Below are positions 117 through 64,000 of a stretch of DNA of 64,000 nt, piece after piece. The notes below the pieces were generated by a model. The model was not told where the DNA came from. It ran no database searches and saw only the letters and a program-made list of their open reading frames with translations. Numbering within the stretch: the stretch's first letter is position 1; every line of letters begins with the position of its first letter. Both the position numbers and the translations under genes were made by a program. This stretch comes from an uncultured Gammaproteobacteria bacterium (GTDB lineage Bacteria; Patescibacteriota; Patescibacteriia; Magasanikbacterales; UBA922): assembly GCA_964597575.1 (NCBI GenBank), contig CAZQXB010000001.1:402111-466110 (forward strand). The letters are read 5' to 3'.

Positions 117-189
117 AGGCCTGTAGTTTCAATGGTAAAACATCGGTCTCCAAAACCGAGGTTCCGAGTTCGAGTCTCGGCGGGCCTGC
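117..189 (+). tRNA. tRNA-Trp (anticodon CCA)
   Basis: Manual cloverleaf: 7-bp acceptor AGGCCTG/CGGGCCT (one G-U), anticodon stem TCGGT/ACCGA with loop CTCCAAA, T-arm CCGAG-TTCGAGT-CTCGG, 72 nt. Confidence 0.8.
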
Positions 190-9378: not shown

Positions 9379-10119
9379 ATGTCAGAAGGTCCAAAACGTT
9401 TTGAGTTAGGCCAGATGTTTCTTCGAGAAACAAATAGTATTCCACAAGCAGACAAATGGTTAGAAAACAGGGCTGAATGGATGGTTGGGGCTGCTCAAAT
9501 CAAAAAATATTTGGCACCAAAAATTGAATTTCGTGACAGATTGGCTGGAGAGGTAGAAAAAGGAGTAAAGGTGTTAGCTATTGGTGCAGGAAAAGGACAT
9601 GAGCTTGATGAAATGGACAGCATTCTTCCTGGCTCAGAAATCATAGGTCTTGACCCCGATGATTTTTATTCTCGACCAGTAAAGCAAAAACTAGAAAAAA
9701 CTGCCCATAATGCGTCATATCTTCCAGAAACTATTCGTGCAGAAAATTTAGAGGGTGTAGAAAATGCTTCACTAGATGGTGTAACATTATTTTTTGTACT
9801 CCATCATATTGATGAACAAAAACACGGCGCTGTTTTAAAAGAAATTCATCGTGTTCTTAAGCCAGATGGAAAGGTGTTTATCGCTGAAGATTTGGTAGAT
9901 AACGATGAGGAAAGAAAAATAACCGAAAGAACGGATCGTATTTTGAATACTGAGTTATCAGGCAAGAATTCACATCATTACCGAAGTATTCCTGAGTGGA
10001 AAGTTTTTTTTCATACATACGGCTTTGAAATAATAGAGGTAAGCGAACAGAAGCCTGATAAAGTTCGCCATGGATTTTTTGTATTAGAAAAAGCAAACAT
10101 TTTACAAAATAATACATAG
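9379..10119 (+). CDS. class I SAM-dependent methyltransferase
   Basis: Motif I VLAIGAGKGHEL and post-I acidic residue; LKPDGKVFIAE motif. Confidence 0.55.
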   Translation: MSEGPKRFELGQMFLRETNSIPQADKWLENRAEWMVGAAQIKKYLAPKIEFRDRLAGEVEKGVKVLAIGAGKGHELDEMDSILPGSEIIGLDPDDFYSRPVKQKLEKTAHNASYLPETIRAENLEGVENASLDGVTLFFVLHHIDEQKHGAVLKEIHRVLKPDGKVFIAEDLVDNDEERKITERTDRILNTELSGKNSHHYRSIPEWKVFFHTYGFEIIEVSEQKPDKVRHGFFVLEKANILQNNT

Positions 10120-34071: not shown

Positions 34072-34147
34072 GTGCGCGCCGAGGGATTCGAACCCCCGAC
34101 CCTCTCGGTGTAAACGAGATGCTCTAACCAACTGAGCTAGGCGCGCC
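34072..34147 (-). tRNA. tRNA-Val (anticodon TAC)
   Basis: Reverse-complement cloverleaf GGCGCGCCTAGCTCAGTTGGTTAGAGC...anticodon loop TTTACAC...GGTTCGAATCC...GGCGCGCA. Confidence 0.8.
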
Positions 34148-37946: not shown

Positions 37947-38104
37947 CACAGCAAACTCCTTTGGTTGTAAGGTGAACCACTCATGCCTCCACATTGGGGC
38001 AGATATGGCTTCTAACTATAGCATATTTTAGCCATTTTGTCAAGAGATGCGAGCCTCGGAATCTCATTGCTTTTTTGCCTGAGTTGAGCTATACTTGATT
38101 CATT

Positions 38105-38920
38105 ATGAATTTGTTTCACGCTATTCTTCTCGGGGTGATCCAGGGGCTCACAGAATTTTTACCTGTATCTTCTTCGGGGCATCTTATTTTTGTACCCCAT
38201 CTATTTGGCTGGGCAGACCAAGGTTTAACCTTTGATCTCACGGTGCATTTGGGAACTCTTCTTGCGGTTATGGGGTATTTCCGCGGTCGTCTTTTAACAA
38301 CGATTCGAACCGCATTTCTTCCAAAAGAGCAGGGTATTAAAGAGCGGCAATTTTTGGCTCTCGTTCTCTTGTCGATTATCCCCGCGGGAATGATCGGATT
38401 CTTTTTTGGAGATACGATTGAGACAGCCTTTCGTTCCCCAAAGTTGGTCGCTTGGAATCTTATTTTTTGGGGTTTGGTGCTCTACGCAGCCGACTGGTAC
38501 CGAACAAAAAAAACAGAAGCGGGTGTTCCCGGAGGAGAGAGTCAGAATATTACAAAACGACAAATGGTTTCTATGGCATTGGCCCAAGCCGTGGCTTTGG
38601 TGCCTGGCACAAGTCGCTCAGGTATTACCATGACTGCCGGAATGTTTGCGGGCTTAAGTAAAAAAGCAGCCACCGAGTTTTCGTTTCTCATGAGTATTCC
38701 GGTGATTGGCTTATCGGCACTTGTGAAATTTGCGGATCTGGCCACAGGAACTGTTTCGAGTGCGCCGACCAGTATGCTTGTTGTGGGTTTTGTGTGCGCG
38801 TTTGTGTCTGGGCTTTTTGCGATTTCTTTTCTCATGCGTTTAATTGAGCGGTGGAGTTTCTTGCCTTTTACCATATACCGCATACTCGTCGGAGTTCTTA
38901 TTTTATTTTTTCTGGCCTAA
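38105..38920 (+). CDS. uppP: undecaprenyl-diphosphate phosphatase
   Basis: GVIQGLTEFLPVSSSGHL signature. Confidence 0.85.
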   Translation: MNLFHAILLGVIQGLTEFLPVSSSGHLIFVPHLFGWADQGLTFDLTVHLGTLLAVMGYFRGRLLTTIRTAFLPKEQGIKERQFLALVLLSIIPAGMIGFFFGDTIETAFRSPKLVAWNLIFWGLVLYAADWYRTKKTEAGVPGGESQNITKRQMVSMALAQAVALVPGTSRSGITMTAGMFAGLSKKAATEFSFLMSIPVIGLSALVKFADLATGTVSSAPTSMLVVGFVCAFVSGLFAISFLMRLIERWSFLPFTIYRILVGVLILFFLA

Positions 38921-59402: not shown

Positions 59403-61502
59403 ATGAGTGAATTTAAGCTCAAATCAGACTATAAACCAGCAGGAGACCAGCCAAAGGCGATTGCAGGGCTTGTTTCAGGCTTGAATAAAGGGTTTAAAAA
59501 GCAGACGTTGCTTGGAGTAACAGGGAGCGGAAAAACCTTTACGGTCGCGAATGCGATTGCCGAAACAGGTCGGCCGACTTTAGTGATTGCGCACAATAAA
59601 ACCTTAGCTGCGCAGCTTTGTAATGAGTTTCGTGAGTTTTTTCCAGAAAATGCGGTGGAGTATTTCGTGAGTTACTACGATTACTACCAGCCAGAGGCGT
59701 ACATGCCACATTCGGATACGTACATTGAAAAAGAGGCACAGATTAACGAAGAAATTGATCGTCTGCGTCACGCGTGTACACAAGCATTACTTTCTCGTCG
59801 AGATGTAATTATCGTAGCATCGGTTTCGGCGATTTACGGGTTAGGCTCACCTAAAGAATATGAAAAAATCGTTGTTCATTTGCGCCGGGGCGATGAGCTT
59901 GATCGACGAGGTTTGACTGAGCAGTTTGTGGCGCTTCAATTTGAACGAACTACTGCAGATTTACGACGTGGCACATTTCGTTTGCAAGGCCAGGTGTTTG
60001 AAATTATGCCGGTCAATGATGAAAAAATTTATCGGTTTGAAATTTCGAACCGCATTGACCGTATTGAATATGTTGACCCGGTTACGCGCAAGGTGATTCG
60101 CGAAGTCGAAGATGCATGGTTTTTTCCAGCGAAACATTATGTTGCTGGGCCAGAAGCTCGTGAACGTGCGTTTACTTCAATTCGCACAGAATTGGACAAC
60201 CAACTCGCAGAATTCCAGAAGAAAGGAAAAGTACTTGAATATGAACGGCTGAAACGTCGGGTAGCGTATGATTTAGAAATGATTAAAAACATTGGGTATT
60301 GCAACGGTATTGAAAATTATTCACGGCATTTTGATGGCCGTTTACCAGGAGAACCCCCTTTTACTCTTTTGGATTATTTTTTTGAGTGTTCTCCAGATTT
60401 TTTAACCGTAATTGATGAGTCGCATGTGACGGTGCCGCAAATTCGCGGCATGTATGCTGGCGACAAAGCGCGGAAAGATACTCTGATCGAGCATGGTTTT
60501 CGGTTGCCGAGTGCGCGTGATAATCGGCCGCTTCAGTATGCTGAATTTGAAAAACGCGTAGCGCAAACCATTTATGTATCAGCTACCCCGACTGAATTTG
60601 AAGTCAAAGAAAGTGAGCAGGTGGTGGAGCAAATCGTTCGCCCTACTGGGCTCATTGATCCGGAAGTGATTATTCGACCAGTAACAGGGACTGCCGGAAA
60701 TAAATCACAGGTAGAAGATGTCATTGAGCGCATTGCTGAGCGAGTAGGAAAAGGAGAACGAGCGCTTGTAACCACTCTTACGAAAAAGATGGCAGAGGAT
60801 CTTTCTGAGCATTTGCGCAGTAAAGGACTCAAAGTGCAGTATTTGCATAGTGATATCCAAACCCTTGAGCGCGTACAAATTCTTATGGCGCTCCGGACTG
60901 GGGAAATTGAAGTGATTGTCGGCGTCAACCTGCTTCGTGAAGGTCTTGATTTACCAGAGGTTTCCCTGGTGGCCATTCTTGATGCAGATAAAGAAGGATT
61001 CTTGCGGAGCGATACGAGTTTAATTCAAACCATTGGCCGGGCAGCGCGTAATGTAAATGGGTTAGTGGTTTTGTATGCCGACCACAGTACTGGTTCAATT
61101 GAGCGAGCGCTTGGGGAAACGAATCGTCGTCGTACTATTCAGTTAGCGTACAATAAAGAACACGGTATTACTCCGAAAACGATTCAGAAGCGCATTCGCA
61201 ATATTTTGGAGGAGTTTGGGATTTCAGCGGATGGGCTCGAAGCTAAGAAAGCGGGCCGGGGAAAGAAACAAGGGAGTCGAGGGTCGGTGACCGATCTCGA
61301 CCTACTTGGTGACGCTCGCCCACTCAAAGAAATTTTGAAAGAGAAAGAAACGCAAATGAAAGAGGCTGCTCAAAAACTTGAATTTGAACTTGCCGCTCTT
61401 CTCCGAGATGAAATTCGCGAGCTCCGTGCCAAAGAAAATGCAGGAGGTGCTTCAAAAGCAGGTCGTGCCCGAAAAACCAAACCATCACAACAACTTTTAT
61501 GA
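59403..61502 (+). CDS. uvrB: excinuclease ABC subunit B
   Basis: GVTGSGKTF Walker A, helicase motifs, C-terminal UVR domain ELAALLRDEIRELRA. Confidence 0.9.
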   Translation: MSEFKLKSDYKPAGDQPKAIAGLVSGLNKGFKKQTLLGVTGSGKTFTVANAIAETGRPTLVIAHNKTLAAQLCNEFREFFPENAVEYFVSYYDYYQPEAYMPHSDTYIEKEAQINEEIDRLRHACTQALLSRRDVIIVASVSAIYGLGSPKEYEKIVVHLRRGDELDRRGLTEQFVALQFERTTADLRRGTFRLQGQVFEIMPVNDEKIYRFEISNRIDRIEYVDPVTRKVIREVEDAWFFPAKHYVAGPEARERAFTSIRTELDNQLAEFQKKGKVLEYERLKRRVAYDLEMIKNIGYCNGIENYSRHFDGRLPGEPPFTLLDYFFECSPDFLTVIDESHVTVPQIRGMYAGDKARKDTLIEHGFRLPSARDNRPLQYAEFEKRVAQTIYVSATPTEFEVKESEQVVEQIVRPTGLIDPEVIIRPVTGTAGNKSQVEDVIERIAERVGKGERALVTTLTKKMAEDLSEHLRSKGLKVQYLHSDIQTLERVQILMALRTGEIEVIVGVNLLREGLDLPEVSLVAILDADKEGFLRSDTSLIQTIGRAARNVNGLVVLYADHSTGSIERALGETNRRRTIQLAYNKEHGITPKTIQKRIRNILEEFGISADGLEAKKAGRGKKQGSRGSVTDLDLLGDARPLKEILKEKETQMKEAAQKLEFELAALLRDEIRELRAKENAGGASKAGRARKTKPSQQLL

Positions 61503-62185
61503 CGTTTTGGGAGGCGTTCGCTCAAATTATTCGTCGTGTCGGGTCGGCGATAACCCTGAAACGGTGTGTTGTGGGCGGTTTTTTCCTTGTGTTTCTTTTC
61601 ATTTTTTGTTCGCAAGTAGTTATTCTTTCTTTGGCCAAAGAAATTCACTCGGTTACGTCAACTCCTTCCGCACCAGTCGCCCTCGTGTTTGGTGCTGGCC
61701 TTAAACCAAATGGAAAACCAAGTGATGCCTTGTATGATCGAATTGAGGTGGGCGCTGAACTCTATAAAGAAGGGAAGGTCGAAAAAATTATTATGACAGG
61801 CGATAACGGAAGTCGCCTGTATAATGAGGTTGTGCCGATGCAAGAAACTGCTGAGGCGCTTGGAGTTCCAAAAAAAGATATTATTCTCGACTACGCAGGT
61901 TTTCGCTCGTACGATAGTTGTTACCGAGCGCGGGATGTTTTTGGTGTAACGTCAACCATTGTCGTATCGCAAAAGTTTCATGTGCCCCGCATTTTATTTA
62001 TTTGTCGCGCACTTGGTATAAAAACTGAAGGCGTTGGTGCAGATAAACACATATATAATGAAGCAGGTGGGTATTGGCCAGTTCGGGAATTTCTTGCACG
62101 CGTAAAAGCATTTACAGAAGTAGTCATAACTCGCCCAAAGCCAAAGTTTTTAGGTGAAAGGGAAGTGGAGTGGCAAAATAATTAA
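61499..62185 (+). CDS. DUF218 (YdcF/SanA/ElyC-like) membrane-anchored protein
   Basis: N-terminal TM; IIMTGDNGSR...ETAEALGVPKKDIILDYAGFRSYDSCYRA typical of DUF218. Confidence 0.6.
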   Translation: MTFWEAFAQIIRRVGSAITLKRCVVGGFFLVFLFIFCSQVVILSLAKEIHSVTSTPSAPVALVFGAGLKPNGKPSDALYDRIEVGAELYKEGKVEKIIMTGDNGSRLYNEVVPMQETAEALGVPKKDIILDYAGFRSYDSCYRARDVFGVTSTIVVSQKFHVPRILFICRALGIKTEGVGADKHIYNEAGGYWPVREFLARVKAFTEVVITRPKPKFLGEREVEWQNN

Positions 62186-62244
62186 AGAAAACCCGGCCAC
62201 TCTGCCGGGTTTTCTTATATGAAACTCAAAGTCTGAAGTTGTCT

Positions 62245-63786
62245 TTACACATCACGGAATACCTCTATCTTTGCTCCAAGTGCATTCAGGCGGTTCGCTA
62301 AATCTTCGTAGCCTCGATTAATGTTATAGACATTTCGAAGAATCGATGTTCCCTCAGCTGCAAGCATCCCGATCATAATAATGACCGATGGTCGGAGTGC
62401 CGGAGGGCAGATCATTTCGGTGGCTTTCAGTTTGGTGGGGCCGGTCACATAAAAACGGTGCGGGTCAGCTAAAATAGTTTCTGCGCGCATTTTGTCGAGT
62501 TCTTTGTAGTAAATTGCGCGTTCCTCATATACCCAGTCATGGATAAATGTCTGACCCTTGGCTTGGGTGCCAATAATCGCAAAGAACGGCAAGTTGTCCA
62601 TGTTTATTCCAGGGTAGGGAAGCGCATGAATTTTATCGGTGAGTGCTGTTAGGTTCGATGGGTAAGTTTGAATGTCAACCAATTTTACTTTGCCGTTGTC
62701 ACCGAGATACCGTTTTAAAATTTTATACTTAAAGCCCATTTTCTTCAGTTTGAGTAATTCCATTTCTAAAAAGTCGATTGGGCAACGCTCGACCGTGATT
62801 GATGACTTCGTCACAATCGCAATAGTCAGAAGTGACATGGCTTCAATCGGGTCTTCTCCAAGGTAATATTCTACATTTTTTTCTACTTCACCCTGAAGCC
62901 CGTGCACGGTTAGGGTAGACGTACCCACGCCTTCAACTTTTACTCCAAGTTTTTCCAGGTAGAAACACACATCCTGCACCTGGTAGTTTGCTGACGCATA
63001 TTTAATAACGGTTTTTCCAGGAATAAGGGCGGCCGCCATGAGCACCGCTTCGGTAACAGTGTCTCCTGCTTCGTACAAAACAATTTCGCGATTTTTTTTC
63101 AAACCTTTGTGTGAAACGTGATAATATTTTGAGCTCGTTTCAATATCTACCCCAAGTTCTTCAAGCGCGTACACATAGGGCTGAATCGTACGAGAACCTA
63201 AGCGGCAGCCACTTGCCTGGGGGAGGTCAAATTTTTCTAAACGGTGAATGAGGGATCCGACCATCATGATGACACTCCGTGTTTTGGCAGCCGAGTCATA
63301 CGCAATATTTTTCATCGAAAATACTTTTGGTGGCGTAATGTGCAAATCAGGTCCTTGCCAGGTCGTTTTTACTCCAATCGATTCGAGAACCTCAACAATA
63401 CGATTCACTTCTTCAATTTTGGGGGTATTCTTAATAACCGTTGTCCCTTTGTTCATGAGGGAGGTACACAAAATACCCACCGCTCCATTTTTGGATGTTC
63501 GAACTTTAATCGCGCCTTTCAGAGTATGGCCACCTTGAATACGAAAGTTCACGGTACCTGGGCGAGAAAGCGAGACGATTTCTCGGTCAAGAGCCTGGCT
63601 AATAGTGGCTAGAGTTTTGGTCGAAAGATTTTGTTCCCCTTTTTCAATACGAGCAACCGCAGATTGGGTCGTACCAATTTTCTTTGCGAGTTCGGCTTGG
63701 GTCATGCGACGCTCCTCACGGAGTTGGGCGATCATCGATCCGATGGAAAAAAGAGCGTGTTTTGAGGAGGTGTCTGCTTTTGCCAT
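62245..63786 (-). CDS. murA: HTH_XRE DNA-binding domain fused to UDP-N-acetylglucosamine 1-carboxyvinyltransferase (MurA/EPT family)
   Basis: N-terminal RMTQAELAKKIGTTQSAVARIEKGEQNLS (XRE HTH) continuous in frame with FRIQGGHTLKGAIKVRTSKNGAVGIL MurA N-terminus. Confidence 0.7.
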   Translation of the reverse strand: MAKADTSSKHALFSIGSMIAQLREERRMTQAELAKKIGTTQSAVARIEKGEQNLSTKTLATISQALDREIVSLSRPGTVNFRIQGGHTLKGAIKVRTSKNGAVGILCTSLMNKGTTVIKNTPKIEEVNRIVEVLESIGVKTTWQGPDLHITPPKVFSMKNIAYDSAAKTRSVIMMVGSLIHRLEKFDLPQASGCRLGSRTIQPYVYALEELGVDIETSSKYYHVSHKGLKKNREIVLYEAGDTVTEAVLMAAALIPGKTVIKYASANYQVQDVCFYLEKLGVKVEGVGTSTLTVHGLQGEVEKNVEYYLGEDPIEAMSLLTIAIVTKSSITVERCPIDFLEMELLKLKKMGFKYKILKRYLGDNGKVKLVDIQTYPSNLTALTDKIHALPYPGINMDNLPFFAIIGTQAKGQTFIHDWVYEERAIYYKELDKMRAETILADPHRFYVTGPTKLKATEMICPPALRPSVIIMIGMLAAEGTSILRNVYNINRGYEDLANRLNALGAKIEVFRDV

Positions 63787-64000
63787 AAGAACAAAAAAGA
63801 ATGATAAAAAGAGTATAGCATATATGTTATATAGTTAAAAGTATCAGTGTGGGGATATCCCGATTTTTTGTTTTGCGTAGGGGGTCGAGCTCTCACGGTA
63901 CCCTCCTTGCTTTTTATCCTTTTGTGGCCTAAAATACGGTCATCTACTCTTACTATATTCTATTTATGCAGGAACGTATTCTTGAAGCCCTCAATTGGCG

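Follow-up and report, generated by a model that had tools for sequence, protein, structure and literature searches.

Domain architecture of a helix-turn-helix–MurA fusion

The stretch of DNA analyzed here, 64,000 nucleotides of contig CAZQXB010000001.1 (hereafter the window), carries an open reading frame (ORF) on the minus strand at 62245–63786 in which an XRE/Cro-C1 helix-turn-helix (HTH) domain continues without interruption into the peptidoglycan enzyme MurA (UDP-N-acetylglucosamine (UDP-GlcNAc) enolpyruvyl transferase). This HTH-MurA gene comprises 513 codons followed by TAA, starts with ATG, and contains no internal stop codon; its assignment draws on the ORF list, the sequence itself, an identical protein in an independent assembly, and conservation of the fusion. 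From the N terminus, and all on the minus strand, the protein consists of the HTH domain (residues 15–72; 63571–63744), delimited by a Pfam HTH_3 match and by AlphaFold helices; a linker (residues 73–79; 63550–63570), marked by low model confidence and low conservation; and the MurA domain (residues 80–513; 62248–63549), assigned from NCBIfam, from matches in the Protein Data Bank (PDB), and from its fold. The recognition helix TTQSAVARIE (residues 39–48; 63643–63672), defined by invariant residues among homologues, falls within the peptide QAELAKKIGTTQSAVARIEKGEQ found at residues 30–52, and the codon for the catalytic Cys194, the equivalent of Escherichia coli Cys115, lies at 63205–63207, aligned with the GC(A/T)IG.RP motif of solved MurA chains. 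Upstream of the gene, at 63814–63831, lies an 18-bp palindrome, TATAACATATATGCTATA as read on the minus strand, which is a candidate operator by virtue of its conservation and uniqueness.

The match to Pfam HTH_3 spanned residues 19–70 (E = 6.9e-14; 52.1 bits against a cut-off of 23). In the AlphaFold model the N-terminal helices are predicted at residues 3–25, 30–37, 41–48, and 56–66, with predicted local distance difference test (pLDDT) values of about 80–90; four confident helices were resolved between residues 3 and 66, not the five of a five-helix bundle. The nearest solved relatives of the isolated HTH were HipB, the controller protein C.Esp1396I, the 434 repressor, SinR, and PezA, all of which are dimeric repressors that recognize palindromes; autoregulation by a dimer bound to a palindrome ahead of its own gene is usual among XRE regulators (PMC12565409). 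Six residues of the recognition helix (T40, Q41, S42, A45, R46, and E48) were invariant among 72 homologues. The mean frequency of the most common residue was 0.76 in the HTH and 0.79 in MurA, against 0.58 in the linker and 0.43 in the first 14 residues, which places the linker among the two least conserved stretches of the protein; pLDDT fell below 50 at residues 71–75.

MurA catalyzes the first committed step of peptidoglycan synthesis. Residues 84–499 matched Pfam EPSP_synthase (E = 1.6e-38; 133 bits, cut-off 22.8), the protein passed the cut-off of the NCBIfam MurA subfamily NF006873 (314.6 bits, cut-off 297), and MurA chains in the PDB were matched by sequence with a best E-value of 4e-51. 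The AlphaFold model of the complete protein (mean pLDDT 88; predicted template modelling score 0.80) has the two-lobed inside-out alpha/beta barrel fold of MurA, and in a Foldseek comparison of this predicted model the MurA body superposed on 1uae, 5ujs, and 1naw with target-normalised template modelling scores of 0.90–0.92; no solved structure in that comparison had an N-terminal domain like that of HTH-MurA. Catalytic residues were mapped by HMMER alignments to solved MurA chains and by an alignment of 78 orthologues with E. coli MurA, which gave a mapping in agreement with the alignments to solved chains. The equivalents of E. coli K22, N23, R91, C115, R120, R371, and R397 were invariant in the 78 orthologues, and that of D305 was retained in 99% of them. 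Judging from these conserved residues, the C-terminal 434 residues look functional as a catalytically competent MurA.

Conservation of the fusion across Paceibacteria

An identical gene, with no frameshift or stop at the junction, was found in an independent Logan assembly (SRR13355620). All of the best 120 database homologues (69–100% identity; about 505–530 aa; where named, from Parcubacteria, Paceibacterota, Taylorbacteria, or Patescibacteria) contained both domains, and the same was always true of the 120 listed members of a second subclade, from Kaiserbacteria and Nomurabacteria, that are about 55–60% identical to the window protein; these two sets make up the 240 listed homologues referred to below. 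A scan of one genome per GTDB species returned 323 stretches encoding a relative, of which 80 loci at 61–81% identity were kept, all from Paceibacteria (Taylor-, Kaiser-, and Nomurabacteria), and in each of the 80 the alignment ran from the HTH to the MurA C terminus without interruption. Searched against 1.8 billion cluster representatives, residues 1–125 gave 206 matches at E ≤ 1e-10, and about 100 of the best 150 matches extended from the HTH across the junction into the beginning of MurA, with identity down to about 40%. The databases name these two-domain proteins simply MurA.

The first-pass annotation of this DNA had read the ORF as an in-frame XRE-MurA fusion, and this is borne out: the fusion is genuine and conserved, with an unbroken frame in 80 genomes and 240 listed homologues, intact at the junction in the independent assembly, and recovered from 80 GTDB species loci when related genomes were searched. 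It is far beyond chance or artefact. The suggestion made at the same time, that the arrangement might be lineage-specific moonlighting, understates the case, since across the homologues compared here the XRE-MurA fusion is a fixed architecture of a whole class of ultra-small candidate phyla radiation (CPR) bacteria.

The best matches to the N-terminal query also included six large proteins, of 590 to >6000 aa, with 5–11 tandem XRE HTH copies resembling the one in HTH-MurA.

A conserved palindrome overlapping the promoter

The first-pass annotation had proposed looking for an operator in the self-promoter region at 63790–63960, and it is in this interval that the near-perfect palindrome at 63814–63831 was found, overlapping the −10 element and one mismatch away from the 18-bp palindrome TATAGCRTATATGCTATA. 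The motif was exposed by aligning the upstream regions of the 80 loci. In 79 of 81 loci a copy with ≤4 mismatches preceded the fusion gene (70 of the 79 instances at ≤2), and the two loci without it were both cut at a contig end. The consensus from the loci reads TATAGC(A/G)TATATGCTATA, followed by nT. A repeat finder returned 63814–63831 as an inverted repeat with 91% complementarity. Among 78 non-identical loci, palindrome positions 2–6 and 8–18 were invariant or nearly so, the surrounding intergenic sequence was unconserved, and no further copy at ≤2 mismatches occurred in 919 kb of flanking DNA. The palindrome was also present at Kaiserbacteria and Nomurabacteria fusion loci that had been chosen regardless of the motif, 8–10 nt before the ATG. 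Inspection of the loci revealed no clear co-variation between variants of the recognition helix and variants of the left half-site.

The right half of the palindrome, together with the T at position 20, forms an extended −10 element (TGcTATAnT), which in the window reads TGcTATACT (63812–63820, minus strand) and is supported by conservation in the 78 loci; the TG at positions 12–13 and the T at position 20 were invariant, with a single departure at position 12. The left half falls in the spacer of the promoter, a region in which RNA polymerase does not require any particular sequence, yet its invariance equals that of the −10 half. A simple promoter scan missed the real −10 because the −35 element is weak, and the promoter was defined from conservation instead. 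A second ATATGCTATA in the window, at 38017–38026, follows TTGACA by 17 nt (TTGACA-17-TGcTATAGT) and has no left half; it illustrates the local promoter type and the appearance of a promoter on its own.

The palindrome usually ends 8–12 nt before the ATG of the fusion gene (27 nt in the window), which implies a leaderless or nearly leaderless mRNA. A strong Shine-Dalgarno (SD) motif preceded only 4 of the 46 window genes (long ORFs), so that initiation independent of an SD is normal in this organism. A TATAnT-like element ending 6–10 nt before the ATG was seen at several window genes (e.g., those starting at 38105, 17544, and 63966), examples being TGAGCTATACT ahead of 38105 and TATATT ahead of 63966; the pattern suggests that leaderless mRNAs are common in the window organism. 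The same region holds a 54-codon ORF (63732–63896, minus strand) whose GTG start stands behind AAGGAGG, a strong SD motif that is rare in the region, and which, in a different frame, covers the promoter and the palindrome and extends 55 nt into the fusion gene; it is probably spurious, because the surrounding sequence is unconserved in other genomes.

Sixteen nucleotides upstream of the palindrome lies a degenerate DnaA-box-like element, ATATCCCCACA (63848–63858, minus strand), recognized by its conserved spacing in related loci. The DnaA-box consensus TTATCCACA, sometimes with one mismatch, occurred just upstream of the HTH-murA −35 region in about half of the loci, and 20 of the 31 exact copies in the 919 kb of flanking DNA were located 20–36 nt ahead of where the palindrome starts, all of them on the same strand. 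The DnaA-like box stood 10–21 nt from the palindrome both where mreB, the usual divergent neighbour, was near and where it was >300 nt away; it was therefore rejected as part of an mreB promoter, its spacing being fixed to the palindrome and not to mreB. Through this box, DnaA may bring a cell-cycle input into murA transcription.

The palindrome at toxin-antitoxin and cell-wall genes

A scan for the exact palindrome in public metagenome contigs yielded a sample of at least 120 stretches. In 42 of the 120 listed, a homologue of the HTH was encoded directly downstream of the palindrome, either as a small HigA-like XRE protein of about 95 aa (35 stretches) or as the HTH-MurA fusion (7 stretches). 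A Gp49/HigB-type toxin gene (PF05973) stood in this position in 23 others, and in about 20 of these 23 an XRE-like tblastn match lay 350–480 nt from the palindrome, past the toxin gene. The palindrome-associated XREs and the MurA fusions have in common the helix-2/helix-3 signature LTQ.ELA.K.GT(T/K)QS(A/V)I(A/S)R(I/L)E.G. The simplest reading of these associations is that this XRE subfamily recognizes the palindrome; the HTH and its operator were probably captured as a module from an antitoxin-type (HigA-like) repressor.

The toxin-antitoxin (TA)-like operons behind the identical palindrome comprised a Gp49/HigB-type toxin plus a HigA-like XRE, or an XRE alone, with an ATG that often overlapped the end of the palindrome. 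The GC content of the contigs carrying them varied from 0.33 to 0.61, and the repressor/operator pair thus seems to be mobile and widespread.

At the fusion loci, mreB was the divergent upstream neighbour in about 70 of 80 genomes, with the palindrome often in the shared intergenic region, and the genes downstream of the fusion were usually priA-like, def, and fmt. The palindrome is retained in the window, where synteny with mreB is broken, and it therefore belongs to the fusion gene and not to mreB. Beyond these loci, glmS began 10–16 nt downstream of the palindrome on six contigs that had been selected for the palindrome, and three of three GlmS genes chosen by source name alone (Nomurabacteria GCA_020632135.1, the complete Kaiserbacteria genome CP060229.1, and a JGI Paceibacteria contig; lineages as given by the source names in the protein search) had TATAGCATATACGCTATA 13–17 nt before the ATG. 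Single contigs carried the palindrome ahead of murC, ahead of murB (divergent from the fusion), and ahead of a YkuD-M23 cell-wall enzyme gene (L,D-transpeptidase). In one genome (locus L003, 5977–10336), the fusion gene behind the palindrome was followed after a 14-nt gap by a CofD/YvcK-family gene and after a further 7-nt gap by glmS, which looks like a single murA-yvcK-glmS operon; in Bacillus, YvcK/GlmR binds UDP-GlcNAc and activates GlmS. Several cell-wall genes, among them glmS and mreB, are probably coordinated by the fusion in at least some Paceibacteria.

At glmS the palindrome reads TATAGCATATACGCTATA, which is the murA variant seen most often in reverse complement (L202–L207; glmS at 10001 or 3284/2214).

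Proposed mechanism and its alternatives

The first-pass annotation had considered that the N-terminal domain might act as a DNA-binding regulator at the gene's own promoter, and comparative evidence strongly supports this idea. HTH-MurA is likely to be a bifunctional trigger enzyme, an active MurA whose tethered XRE domain would autorepress the gene by occluding the extended −10. The XRE domain, which resembles those of the 434 repressor and HipB and is carried on a short, presumably flexible linker, would most likely sit as a dimer on the palindrome TATAGCRTATATGCTATA. Because the palindrome takes up both the spacer and the extended −10 of the HTH-murA promoter, RNA polymerase would be kept off by bound protein, and MurA would thereby set its own level through negative autoregulation, with repression being the expected outcome rather than activation. 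The same putative operator would serve in the intergenic region shared with mreB, ahead of glmS, and, on single contigs from related Paceibacteria, ahead of murC, murB, and the L,D-transpeptidase gene, and the HTH-plus-operator pair would have been borrowed from HigA-like antitoxin repressors that use the same palindrome. UDP-GlcNAc, phosphoenolpyruvate (PEP), or UDP-N-acetylmuramic acid (UDP-MurNAc) might modulate binding, in which case transcription would be coupled to the status of cell-wall precursors, as the first-pass annotation had suggested it may be.

A more far-reaching and decidedly tentative version, which we regard as doubtful, would have HTH-MurA sense its ligands and act as the master regulator of how Paceibacteria supply peptidoglycan precursors. 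MurA can switch from an open to a closed form and back, and its affinity for the feedback inhibitor UDP-MurNAc is high. Under such a scheme the switch, driven by UDP-GlcNAc plus PEP or by UDP-MurNAc, would alter the grip of two tethered HTHs on the palindrome, so that one protein could measure pathway flux and jointly set transcription of murA, glmS, and mreB, along with that of murB, murC, and ldt in some lineages, with the DnaA-box-like site beside the promoter adding a cell-cycle input. If true, a complete feedback circuit for an essential pathway would be contained in one gene of a minimal genome.

Several observations weigh against the trigger-enzyme reading or limit its reach. Support for binding and autorepression is entirely comparative. 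On the enzyme side, the score against the equivalog TIGR01072 murA was 303.6 bits, under the cut-off of 392.7, which marks a divergent MurA as expected for CPR bacteria; E. coli Asp369 is replaced by Ala in a PPALRPS motif that is invariant across the family (residues 462–464; window about 62395–62403); and there is a 14-residue insertion relative to solved MurA chains at about residues 372–385 (window about 62632–62673). Full MurA activity is, for these three reasons, an assumption. The search for a second, unfused murA, which found none, covered the 64-kb window. On the DNA side, the right half of the palindrome serves as the −10 element whatever may bind there, and stand-alone XREs with the same recognition helix exist in metagenomes and could be alternative binders. 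As to a wider regulon, the HTH-murA promoter alone bears the site within the 64 kb of the window, where no other match occurred at ≤3 mismatches (matches in 0 of 100 shuffles), and Kaiserbacteria and Nomurabacteria carry both the fusion and the palindrome-glmS arrangement as lineages, the co-occurrence being at lineage level only; no single genome with both could be matched between the two protein-search listings.

One alternative is that the fusion is a sequencing-frameshift artefact or is functionally split, with MurA made alone from an internal start and the HTH untranslated or separate. The junction codon (residue 79) is indeed GTG in the window, and SD-like purine runs (Lys-Gly-Gly codons) precede it in many orthologues. 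Residue 79 is, however, a possible start codon in just 15 of 78 orthologues, so that no internal start is conserved, and an internal MurA start at the junction was rejected on this count; the first-pass annotation had named sole use of such a start as grounds for abandoning the fusion, and the orthologues contradict it. Most genes of the organism lack an SD motif in any case, purifying selection acts on the HTH as it does on the enzyme, the gene recurs identically in an independent assembly, and the frame is unbroken in the 80 genomes and the 240 listed database proteins, all of which makes a split or artefactual gene very improbable. It is somewhat easier to suppose, although still unlikely, that the palindrome is the operator of a separate stand-alone XRE (e.g., a HigA-like antitoxin) or of some other factor, and that the fused HTH serves for oligomerization, nucleoid tethering, or partner binding. 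The presence of the identical palindrome ahead of many stand-alone XRE/antitoxin operons speaks for such a division of labour, but in about 80 genomes the palindrome accompanies the fusion gene with no conserved stand-alone XRE gene nearby, the 64-kb window encodes no similar XRE, TA modules have a patchy distribution whereas the site occurs throughout the HTH-MurA family, and the fused HTH has the same recognition helix as the palindrome-associated XREs.

The palindrome might, alternatively, be promoter architecture only, such as an extended −10 that is symmetric or bidirectional and that divergent mreB shares, in which case the HTH would be irrelevant to it. Its right half, TGcTATAnT, is a textbook extended −10, mreB is divergent in most loci, and the unrelated promoter at 38017–38026 also has ATATGCTATA. 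That promoter lacks the left half, however, and at the fusion loci the left half is kept where there is no divergent mreB (as in the window) or where mreB is 300–1300 nt off; it often reads GCG, which gives CGC and not the TG of an extended −10 on the other strand. The full palindrome also stands ahead of co-directional glmS genes and of XRE operons in unrelated contexts, and no other copy was found in 0.9 Mb of flanks that contain hundreds of promoters. We thus give a purely promoter-based explanation a low probability, below that of a separate binder, and retain autorepression by a trigger enzyme as the likely explanation.

Comparison with known regulators

BirA (biotin ligase plus winged HTH), NadR (HTH plus nicotinamide mononucleotide adenylyltransferase), and PutA (ribbon-helix-helix plus proline dehydrogenase) are trigger enzymes or bifunctional enzyme-repressors. 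Like them, HTH-MurA would unite an active metabolic enzyme with a DNA-binding domain on a single chain and act at its own promoter or at promoters of its pathway, the counterpart in HTH-MurA being a candidate operator that overlaps its own −10. It differs from all three in its enzyme, MurA of cell-wall synthesis, and in its HTH class, XRE/Cro-C1; furthermore, ligand or redox control of DNA binding has been demonstrated for BirA, NadR, and PutA, whereas for HTH-MurA it is conjecture. To our knowledge, none of the three controls peptidoglycan genes.

BzdR-type regulators share with HTH-MurA an N-terminal XRE HTH, a linker, and a domain of an enzyme family, which in BzdR is shikimate-kinase-like, and the window HTH matched the BzdR-type NCBIfam family NF006015 ("anaerobic benzoate catabolism transcriptional regulator") at 5.5e-08. 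In BzdR the kinase-like domain works as a sensor and no longer has the enzymatic role of its ancestor, whereas the MurA domain keeps its main catalytic residues. HigA-like antitoxins, which accompany Gp49/HigB-type toxins and are autoregulatory repressors, resemble HTH-MurA in HTH subfamily, recognition helix, and the identical 18-bp palindrome before the operon; they are, however, about 95 aa long, with the HTH C-terminal and a toxin gene alongside, whereas HTH-MurA has its HTH at the N terminus of an essential enzyme and has no toxin. With canonical MurA (E. coli and E. cloacae; MurAA and MurAB of Firmicutes), the fusion protein shares the fold and Cys115, Lys22, Arg120, Asp305, Arg371, and Arg397, and it departs from them in its additional 79-residue N terminus, predicted to bind DNA, in Ala for Asp369, and in the 14-residue insertion.

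Known regulation of MurA operates through proteolysis (ClpCP with ReoM/ReoY), feedback by UDP-MurNAc, and partner proteins, and not through a fused transcription-factor domain. MurA as a transcription factor is not described in the literature searched, in which no account of an HTH-MurA fusion, of MurA as a trigger enzyme, or of the palindrome sequence was found. How MurA activity is matched to growth is an active question and one of relevance to drug targeting, MurA being the target of fosfomycin. A concrete cis/trans pair, consisting of a protein, an 18-bp candidate operator, and candidate targets, offers a rare handle on CPR/Patescibacteria, because these bacteria have very few regulators and are almost uncultured. 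The case would also illustrate how a housekeeping enzyme can come under the control of a captured antitoxin-type repressor module and its operator, and it flags thousands of database entries named just "MurA" as two-domain proteins.

Neighbouring genes and other features of the window

About 25 nt past the stop codon of HTH-murA lies an intrinsic-terminator-like hairpin (62185–62216, minus strand) with a 13-bp stem followed by a T-run. The next gene, encoding a DUF218 protein (61499–62185), is convergent with HTH-murA; given this orientation and the hairpin with its T-run, HTH-murA is monocistronic in the window genome. On the other side, the divergent neighbour is a nitroreductase gene starting at 63966 (plus strand). 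Neither of these two neighbours is a toxin gene, and assignment of HTH-MurA to the TA antitoxins (HigA-like) failed because no toxin partner gene is present. In an Rfam scan of the window the only matches were two tRNA genes, at 117–188 (plus strand) and 34073–34146 (minus strand), with no riboswitch or leader near HTH-murA.

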